Below, in pieces: positions 21,744 to 22,431 of a stretch of 38,936 nt of DNA (position 1 is the first letter of the stretch; each line of letters begins with the position of its first letter). The position numbers and the translations under genes are program-made. The notes beneath the pieces were generated by a model. The model did not search any database, was not told the origin of the DNA, and worked only from the letters and a program-made list of their open reading frames with translations. Source of the DNA: a virus (taxonomy: Duplodnaviria > Heunggongvirae > Uroviricota > Caudoviricetes); IMG/VR virus record IMGVR_UViG_2802429244_000013, positions 1 through 38,936 of that record; one strand, 5' to 3'.

Positions 21744-22431
21744 CAATACCTGCATCACGGCGAAGACGATCAGCCTCCAGAGACACCTTATCAGTGGCGG
21801 CCTTGCGGTAGGCTGTATCAGCAAATATTTTTCCTACCGTCGCAAGCGTGCCAACGATGGACTCAATACGAACTGTATTGCGCATCATTGCTTTCTCGGC
21901 GGCGCTGATATTTTCCATCAGCATCTTCCTTTCCTGGTCCCCATTAGCATCTTCCAGCGACACCAGCCACCGACCAATATTCTCTGCAGCGACAAGGTTG
22001 TTAGCACGAAGGCGAAATAATTCGTCCTCGAGCGTCAACGCTTTAGCATCCTCTATCACCTCATCTTTGAGCAGAAGGCGACGGGCATAACCACCGTGTT
22101 TTAATGCCTGCTGGTTACCGGGTTGGAATGGGTTAGTCGGGGGATCGGTACGCATTCCGCGTATCGGTTTCGTATCCAGTGTAGGTTCTGTTTTTGGTTG
22201 CGTACCTTTTTGTGTAAGGCCAGTAATGGCAGGCTTTCTGCTGGTACGCACTTTTCTTTTTTGCGTACCATTTTTGCAAACCTGCGTACCGCCACTGCGT
22301 ACCCAACCAAGCTTTTTGGCCCTCTTCCTGATAGCCCCTTCTGTTACGCCGTATTTCTCGCCTATATCACGGAGGCTAAGGACTCCGGCCCGGTATGCCG
22401 ATTCGATGGCCTCCCAGTCCGGTTTTGCCAT
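21682..22431 (-). CDS. terminase small subunit (N-terminal HTH)
   Basis: N-terminal helix-turn-helix (LSLRDIGEKYGVTEGAIRKRAKKLGW); AGAGGA RBS; immediately upstream of and overlapping TerL; contains the GTQ octamer repeats. Confidence 0.65.
   Translation of the reverse strand: MAKPDWEAIESAYRAGVLSLRDIGEKYGVTEGAIRKRAKKLGWVRSGGTQVCKNGTQKRKVRTSRKPAITGLTQKGTQPKTEPTLDTKPIRGMRTDPPTNPFQPGNQQALKHGGYARRLLLKDEVIEDAKALTLEDELFRLRANNLVAAENIGRWLVSLEDANGDQERKMLMENISAAEKAMMRNTVRIESIVGTLATVGKIFADTAYRKAATDKVSLEADRLRRDAGIDDGNGERDLNDFYSDIQTDA

Follow-up and report, generated by a model that had tools for sequence, protein, structure and literature searches.

An octamer array within the small terminase gene

The stretch of DNA analysed here, hereafter the window, is the 38,936-nucleotide (nt) record of a Caudoviricetes virus (IMGVR_UViG_2802429244_000013), and our subject is an array of six exact octamers, GGTACGCA or its inverted form TGCGTACC, inside the gene for the small terminase subunit, terS. 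The terS gene (21682..22431, minus strand) encodes a 249-residue protein that matches PHROG 370, "terminase small subunit", over residues 1-248 (E 7.2e-95). The order of genes is lysis genes, terS, terL and portal. The large terminase gene terL, given here as its longest open reading frame (ORF; 20313..21824, minus strand), matches Pfam Terminase_3 (4.5e-38) and the TIGR01547 PBSX family (3e-41), and its start as annotated in relatives lies about 50 nt inside the end of terS; the portal protein gene, next in the packaging module, occupies 18847..20313 on the same strand (Pfam Phage_portal_3, 7.6e-106). The PHROG match and the place of the gene upstream of terL bear out an earlier note, made from the letters of this DNA, that had put the array in the small terminase gene.

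The array occupies 157 nt (22147..22303, minus strand; terS codons 43-95) and holds six of the seven copies of the octamer in the window, where 0.87 would be expected and the maximum in 100 dinucleotide-preserving shuffles was 3. On the plus strand, TGCGTACC starts at 22199, 22262, 22283 and 22296 and the inverted copies, GGTACGCA, start at 22147 and 22243; these are exactly the six positions and orientations that the earlier note had reported. On the coding strand, GGTACGCA therefore appears as octamer 1 at gene nt 129-136 (22296..22303), octamer 2 at 142-149 (22283..22290), octamer 3 at 163-170 (22262..22269) and octamer 5 at 226-233 (22199..22206), all on the minus strand, and TGCGTACC appears at gene nt 182-189 (octamer 4, 22243..22250) and 278-285 (octamer 6, 22147..22154), both inverted and hence on the plus strand. 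Directly after octamer 2 lies a decayed copy, GGTTTGCA (22275..22282, minus strand, gene nt 150-157), which is orthologous to an exact GGTACGCA in relatives among the Klebsiella phages.

Given a 157-nt stretch, the Poisson probability of at least six copies is 2.6e-18, or about 1e-13 after multiplication by all window positions, so the claim that the octamers cluster far above chance holds. A one-mismatch search found no such octamer within the array, and one-mismatch octamers are not enriched across the window (27 found, 24.7 expected). The array is therefore a set of six exact words in otherwise non-repeated sequence. The seventh exact octamer (31981-31988) is isolated in a minus-strand ORF (31631-32062), without neighbouring copies, and is most simply viewed as a chance occurrence.

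The TerS protein has an N-terminal helix-turn-helix (HTH) domain, followed by a linker that is basic and disordered and then by a long helical hairpin. AlphaFold2 (AF2) places helices at residues 6-15, 20-27, 31-41, 107-161 and 165-199 of the full-length protein, from an alignment that was shallow, the best 120 of the 2,230 homologues in a large protein search all being at least 86% identical. The first three helices form the N-terminal domain (residues 1-45, encoded by 22297..22431, minus strand), with a predicted local distance difference test score (pLDDT) of 81-89 in the full-length model; the same helices were obtained, at pLDDT 82.5, when the domain was folded alone. Linker residues 48-98 have a pLDDT below 50 and are predicted to be disordered, and the hairpin spans residues 107-199. 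Array codons 43-95 thus fall almost wholly in the predicted disordered linker, where the protein could tolerate imposed codons.

Weak Pfam matches to Sigma70_r4 and HTH_AsnC cover TerS residues 17-41, and the best Foldseek matches of the N-terminal domain alone were all HTH DNA-binding domains (IstA, sigma region 4, Lrp/AsnC, DeoR), none of them significant. The full-length AF2 model matched only coiled-coil proteins in Foldseek (all E >0.4), and a PDB sequence search with TerS returned no TerS and nothing relevant. No Pfam or NCBIfam family scored above threshold for TerS, which hence has no Terminase_2 membership. Helix 3 is the usual recognition helix of HTH domains, and in the AF2 models it corresponds to codons 31-41 (EGAIRKRAKKL; 22309..22341, minus strand), the predicted recognition helix of this TerS.

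The six octamers are read in three ways by the terS frame: octamer 1 as W-V-R, octamers 2, 3 and 5 as G-T-Q, and the two inverted copies as x-R-T (V-R-T for octamer 4, M-R-T for octamer 6). The earlier note had ascribed a repeated Gly-Thr-Gln motif to the octamer. Among the four copies of the same orientation this stands for three, the fourth (22296-22303) being Trp-Val-Arg in another frame, and the motif covers just three of all six copies. When terS was recoded synonymously, either with local codon usage or by permutation of the gene's own codons, none of 20,000 recodings reached six copies (mean ~0.5, maximum 5), and each of the six octamers can be removed by synonymous codons. Given the three readings of one word and this outcome, we conclude that the repeat is selected as DNA and not as a peptide repeat. 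The octamer fills all six of its non-exclusive coding opportunities within the linker and not one of the four in the rest of TerS, so the Gly-Thr-Gln repeat follows from the DNA word and is not its cause. A tandem repeat of the protein would give the same peptide at each copy with free codon choice, and the array has neither property.

Covariation of the repeated word with the predicted recognition helix

A prophage of E. coli APEC E19057 (NZ_CP126934) has a terS 99.7% identical to that of the window. Conservation of the octamers in related terS genes, a check that the earlier note had named, is evident in relatives about 88% identical to the window gene. These Klebsiella phages (GZ7, Mulock and several ST-named prophages) and E. 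coli prophages carry 4-7 exact octamers in the same region, or 6-9 copies when the 7-nt core GTACGCA is counted. They have two abutting octamers, GGTACGCAGGTACGCA, one of which the window keeps in the decayed form GGTTTGCA. The linker peptide differs among the relatives and its length varies by 12-nt units of one core each (for example G-T-Q-S or K-S-T-Q), giving TerS lengths of 250, 254, 258, 262 and 266 residues (loci L025-L055). Two near-identical prophages have lost one copy by point mutation, which left G-M-Q in one (L018) and W-A-R in the other (L023).

Exchange of the HTH together with the array is visible in phage Chronis, a mosaic whose terS resembles that of GZ7 over the first 285 nt, which hold HTH and array (97.9% identity), and that of RothC over the last 450 nt (96.9%). 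RothC TerS has a different N-terminal domain and no octamers, and its gene has repeats of its own (TGCGAATTCGCA, TGCGAA) at the same place.

Two further PHROG 370 genes, with N-terminal domains unlike that of the window TerS, have other words in the corresponding part of the linker-coding DNA. In the Klebsiella phage RothC (L003:565-642), the linker-coding DNA has two TGCGAATTCGCA palindromes and further TGCGAA. In terS of the VT2-Sakai/933W type (L004:1641-1685), a GATC word occurs four times with a 12-nt period, as CGATCATGA three times and TGATCATAA once; these Stx-phage repeats are read I/T-D-H-E/K, their GATC, like that of P1 pac, being a Dam site. The two cases suggest that a linker-encoded recognition array may be a general feature of the PHROG 370 family.

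The HTH domain is also found on a second TerS body. Residues 1-45 are common to small terminases of PHROG 1206 (for example those of HK639, SEN34, ST11-VIM1phi8.1 and Erwinia phage 59) at 54-71% identity, the remainder of those proteins being unrelated, and BLAST clustering of the C-terminal parts gave two separate groups. The PHROG 1206 genes have 2-4 GGTACGCA (3-4 GTACGCA cores) directly after the HTH-coding part, mostly read V-R-K.

We compared helix and word in 160 loci encoding the HTH domain, drawn from viral contigs (the best 80 of more than 521 loci) and, across many genera, from bacterial genomes, which yielded 148 distinct genes. Genes were grouped by the hexapeptide at residues 31-36, which opens helix 3, and compared with the most repeated heptamer in the linker. 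The class [ED]G[AG][IV]RK (for example EGAIRK; 95 genes, both TerS bodies) goes with GTACGCA at 4.95 copies per linker, DTA[IV]RK (24 genes) with GTTCGCA at 3.67, HATI[LI]K (8 genes) with GTAACCA at 3.50, H[GS]A[IV]NK (10 genes) with GTATCCA at 2.90, HQAISK (3 genes) with GTTGCCA at 2.67 and HVGI[QT]K (2 genes) with GTTACCA at 2.50. The matrix of helix class against core is diagonal, with at most 0.12 copies off the diagonal, and for the largest class the 2.4 kb on the flanks contain the cognate core at 0.11 per kb. In general terms the word can be written G-GT-NNN-CA-a. On this comparative evidence, each kind of site is matched to its cognate TerS DNA-binding domain.

The reading of the copies is similar throughout. 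The 474 instances of GTACGCA comprise 240 read V-R-x, 177 read x-T-Q and 55 inverted copies read x-R-T, and the other cores use the same three coding solutions, the second then being G-S-Q or G-N-Q. Successive copies are mostly spaced by 12, 13 or 15 nt.

HK639-like genes have four orthologous copies, three direct and one inverted, that switch jointly with the helix. HK639 itself has EGAIRK, direct copies GGTACGCA and the inverted copy GCGTAC; locus L073 has DTAIRK, GGTTCGCA and GCGAAC; a Siccibacter prophage (L116) has HGAINK, GGTATCCA and GGATAC; and a Proteus prophage (L161) has HQAISK, GGTTGCCA and GGCAAC. The change from GTA to GTT in L073 is synonymous and retains V-R, and the residue encoded at the inverted copy follows the DNA core, being V, E, I or Q. 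This pattern would be very hard to explain unless the DNA word were selected and read by the TerS recognition helix. Arg35 goes with CG-containing cores and Asn, Ser or Leu with the others, a pairing suggestive of direct base readout, as is that of E-G with A and of D-T with T at core position 3.

In a reverse scan, the viral collection was searched for two GGTACGCA 3-8 nt apart, and at least 120 loci were returned. Among the matches listed, 83 of 120 lie just downstream of an [ED][GA][AGT]IRK helix, 3 stand too near the end of a contig for a judgement, 16 consist of the pair without a further copy, and the 18 others have at least three copies and comprise simple tandem repeats, high-GC arrays and two enterobacterial arrays without an HTH. 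Among these matches, then, the octamer array is found elsewhere as well, but in Enterobacteria-type sequence it is almost always beside this TerS.

Three high-GC viral contigs (L179:6557-6834, L221:3273-3543 and L239:3277-3472) have intergenic arrays of 7-12 GGTACGCA in both orientations that adjoin large primase- or helicase-like genes, without this TerS HTH; they may represent an unrelated use of the same word, as iterons or operator arrays. The two enterobacterial viral contigs (L190, reverse orientation, 5184-5282; L204:6691-6827) have 6-7 GTACGCA cores in a layout like that of a terS linker, with no HTH domain upstream of the array and no intact terS. L190 begins with a tyrosine integrase gene, and L204 has, 400 base pairs (bp) downstream, a 148-residue homologue of the TerS body that lacks the HTH (BLASTP E 6e-7), together with DUF927 and DUF2280 genes. 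Neither was found in complete E. coli genomes, and annotated E. coli genomes match only pieces that flank the L190 array element. We consider both to be candidate satellites or defective elements that keep the cis site only.

Other features were noted around terS. A stable hairpin with 20-nt arms (22448-22491, minus-strand RNA; -27.1 kcal/mol, z -6, without a U tract) lies just upstream of the terS ribosome-binding site, after a 70-residue ORF. It is kept in GZ7, L026, L006 and L007, where changes in the inner stem are compensatory, and has no counterpart upstream of HK639 terS; it could be regulatory, a processing site or part of pac. A scan of 22100-22800 for promoters and terminators found none. 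TerS homologues are named "hypothetical protein" in RefSeq, and in two E. coli chromosomes (L008:1486-1974, L009:1483-1971) only the C-terminal 162 residues of terS are annotated (WP_004218030.1, "hypothetical protein"), with a full 258-residue terS ORF, HTH and array included, open nonetheless. As terS is unnamed in most genomes, the packaging module is under-annotated.

Proposed role of the array in DNA packaging

Because the word changes in step with the DNA-reading helix across about 150 genes, we think it probable that the six octamers are binding sites for the HTH of the TerS encoded by the same gene and that they jointly form the recognition element of pac. A pac site is sought in or next to terS in a phage with a headful-type TerL, and the array lies inside terS, next to a TerL of this kind (Terminase_3, TIGR01547). 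TerL is homologous to the "Gene 2 protein" of PDB 4idh/4iee (E 7.6e-79), and 4idh is, we take it, the headful large terminase gp2 of phage Sf6; on that basis the phage is expected to package by a headful (pac) mechanism. The earlier note had read the octamers as a pac or terminase recognition site, and comparison among genes supports this, strongly so for recognition by TerS.

We propose the following mechanism. TerS would oligomerise through its C-terminal helical hairpin, leaving the N-terminal HTHs on flexible linkers, and several HTHs would dock on consecutive G-GTACGCA-a words, most of them at intervals of 12-15 bp and a few in inverted orientation. This multivalent docking would hold the TerS oligomer on concatemeric phage DNA at the array. 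The Sf6-type TerL would then be recruited, make the first cut nearby and package by the headful, presumably toward terL and the portal gene (lower window coordinates). Spacings of 12, 13 and 15 nt are about one helical turn, and neighbouring HTHs on TerS rings are reported to be the same distance apart (PMC4737164). The sites sit in linker-coding DNA, an arrangement by which HTH and sites could be inherited or exchanged as one cassette of ~290 bp, and since the linker is predicted to be disordered, the protein would tolerate whatever peptide the sites impose (V-R, G-T-Q or R-T).

Several points weigh against this interpretation. SF6 and SPP1 have the HTH-type pac TerS that is best studied, and the isolated DNA-binding domain of SF6 TerS preferred no pac repeats in vitro (PMC4737164), so repeats near terS are not automatically TerS sites, and our literature search found no binding, footprint or virion-end data for any member of the family. 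The structural matches behind the HTH fold assignment are non-significant, and what the model supports is a generic HTH. Four genes with the helix classes EGTIRS and ESTLRS (L085, L151, L169 and L175) have no clear GT-NNN-CA array, and their linkers repeat other words instead (GCGTGA/CACGCA or GCGCGA). The helix and the repeats lie within ~250 bp, and co-inheritance alone would link them; the case therefore depends on all copies having changed in concert, a process that gene conversion between repeats could help along. The same octamer is arrayed in unrelated high-GC viral contigs that lack the HTH, and the natural five-copy variants L018 and L023 mean that no single copy is essential.

TerS could instead bind the array for autoregulation of terS and terL, or to nucleate its own oligomer, with the real pac or cut site elsewhere. 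The sites do lie within the transcribed terS-terL operon, and the conserved hairpin just upstream of the terS ribosome-binding site hints at extra regulation. We know of no case in which TerS acts as a repressor, and the L190 and L204 elements keep an array without the HTH, which is more in keeping with a packaging signal that acts in cis. In some headful phages, ES18 among them, packaging initiates across a region of ~1000 bp (PMC11260489), but what TerS is established to do is recognise DNA for packaging, and genes of the terS type harbour the known pac sites, such as the 22-bp site of P22 (PMC9611059). We regard autoregulation or nucleation as improbable.

A different reader of the array, such as a phage or host DNA-binding protein, a replication system using iterons or a restriction-type motif, would make the link with the HTH a matter of proximity. 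Helix and array are tightly linked on the DNA, and arrays of 7-12 GGTACGCA stand beside helicase or primase genes in the three contigs that lack this TerS (L179, L221 and L239). This possibility nevertheless strikes us as decidedly unlikely, as at least five helix classes each have their own core, and both of the unrelated TerS bodies show the same pairings, in hosts that range from Escherichia to Pseudomonas and Halomonas, where the neighbouring genes differ and no other gene is constant. The changes also map to the start of the recognition helix, where R35 with the CG core, against N, S or L with others, looks like direct readout.

The DNA repeat would be a by-product if the linker peptide were itself a functional repeat, with V-R or G-T-Q contacting DNA or TerL. 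In keeping with this, the linker is basic, and V-R-K/N/T recurs across many members, including Pseudomonas phages with other codons (GTT CGC). However, a single DNA word gives three unrelated peptides, the codon choice is fixed to a degree that none of the 20,000 recodings matched, and all copies switch with the helix even where GTA to GTT is synonymous. One protein position is V, E, I or Q as forced by the inverted copy, and G-T-Q, G-S-Q and G-N-Q track the DNA core. As the recoding and covariation results already contradict it, we rejected this explanation, to which we would assign very little credence. An RNA structure of the array was also rejected, as direct copies predominate and spacers are unconserved. 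Chance, or recent local duplication or slippage without function, has next to no likelihood and was rejected as well: the gain and loss of 12-nt units means that unequal crossing-over does act on the array, but the probability of ~1e-13, the exact copies with differing spacers and in both orientations, the maintenance across genera and the covariation contradict it.

Beyond recognition of the array by its own TerS, the family may have a readable, modular code, a proposal on which we are evenly divided. In it, the HTH would read G-GT-NNN-CA, residues 31, 32 and 35 would set the central triplet, and HTH and sites would form a self-contained cassette of ~290 bp that moves between unrelated bodies. 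For residues 31-32 and 35, the code would assign E-G and R to ACG, D-T and R to TCG, H-A and L to AAC, H-G and N to ATC, and H-Q and S to TGC. If this is true, L190 and L204 would be satellites or defective elements that borrow the TerS of a helper, and for the first time sequence-specific recognition by TerS in a pac system could be predicted and re-programmed from sequence alone.

The family provides exact multi-copy sites together with natural specificity variants separated by one or two residues of the helix and by one to three bases of the word, so that direct readout by a TerS HTH array is testable with simple swaps. It would become possible to assign pac elements and packaging specificity groups, from sequence, in hundreds of prophages of Escherichia, Klebsiella, Salmonella, Pseudomonas and other hosts, many of whose terS genes are labelled "hypothetical" or truncated in RefSeq. 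Such annotation would help to predict which prophages, satellites and chromosomal pseudo-sites each phage can mobilise, and the array would supply a compact cis element for engineering transducing particles.

Comparison with known packaging systems

Neither this TerS HTH family nor its octamer repeats nor the relation between helix and core is described in the literature that we searched, and searches on HK639, 933W and Mulock likewise gave no account of these repeats or of packaging ends. A search for the octamer itself gave as top matches amplified fragment length polymorphism (AFLP), methylation-sensitive amplified polymorphism (MSAP) and other marker studies in plants and animals, probably since the octamer is part of a standard adapter. 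Where related phage records start and end is a matter of annotation convention (the start of terS or terL) and is uninformative on physical ends. How TerS of pac-type phages chooses viral DNA is still called unclear and controversial (PMC9611059), in vitro binding of TerS to pac DNA of P22, Sf6, SF6 and SPP1 is weak or non-specific (PMC9611059, PMC4737164), and the pac site of ES18 is stated as not known (PMC11260489).

Phage P1 offers one likeness. Its pac also consists of several short words within ~160 bp inside the gene of the recognition subunit (pacA) of a headful phage, and the six exact octamers in 157 nt of terS are clustered in the same manner. The P1 word, TGATCA/G, bears GATC and is controlled by Dam methylation; GGTACGCA differs in that it has no GATC, is 8 nt long and is used in both orientations. 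GATC is thus absent from the repeated word of the window, and the 933W-type repeat CGATCATGA does contain it. No similarity of this TerS to P1 PacA was seen, no search having been aimed at it. The repeats of P1 pac are hexanucleotides, seven in number (PMC11260489).

In phages lambda, 21 and N15, the R sites of cosB match the recognition helix of gpNu1-type TerS and define packaging specificities (PMC4669245). The window array resembles cosB in its repeated sites, in the use of both orientations and in the matched changes of helix and site between specificity groups. It differs in that the lambda-like systems belong to cos phages with a GpA-type TerL, and their sites are extragenic, between cosN and the TerS gene, with a site for integration host factor (IHF). 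In the window, the sites lie in terS codons 43-95, TerL is of the Terminase_3/Sf6-like kind and the HTH is predicted to be a plain one of three helices.

The pac of SPP1 and SF6 (pacL, pacC and pacR) has direct repeats, boxes a, b and c, that reach into the 5' part of terS (PMC4737164). An HTH-type TerS, a headful phage and direct repeats extending into terS are points in common with the window. The TerS described here differs in lying outside Terminase_2, and the SPP1 and SF6 repeats are moderately conserved between the two phages (PMC4737164), whereas the window repeats are exact, numerous and co-vary with the helix.

The pac of P22 is one asymmetric 22-bp sequence inside its TerS gene (PMC9611059) and shares with the window array the embedding of a pac recognition sequence, putative in the window, in terS of a headful, lambdoid-type phage. 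P22 TerS has no exposed N-terminal HTH (PMC4737164, PMC9611059), in contrast to the multi-copy array of the window and its putative reading by an HTH. A pac-type TerS recognition array is therefore of a kind already known; what would be new in the TerS family described here is that its specificity appears to be legible from sequence.

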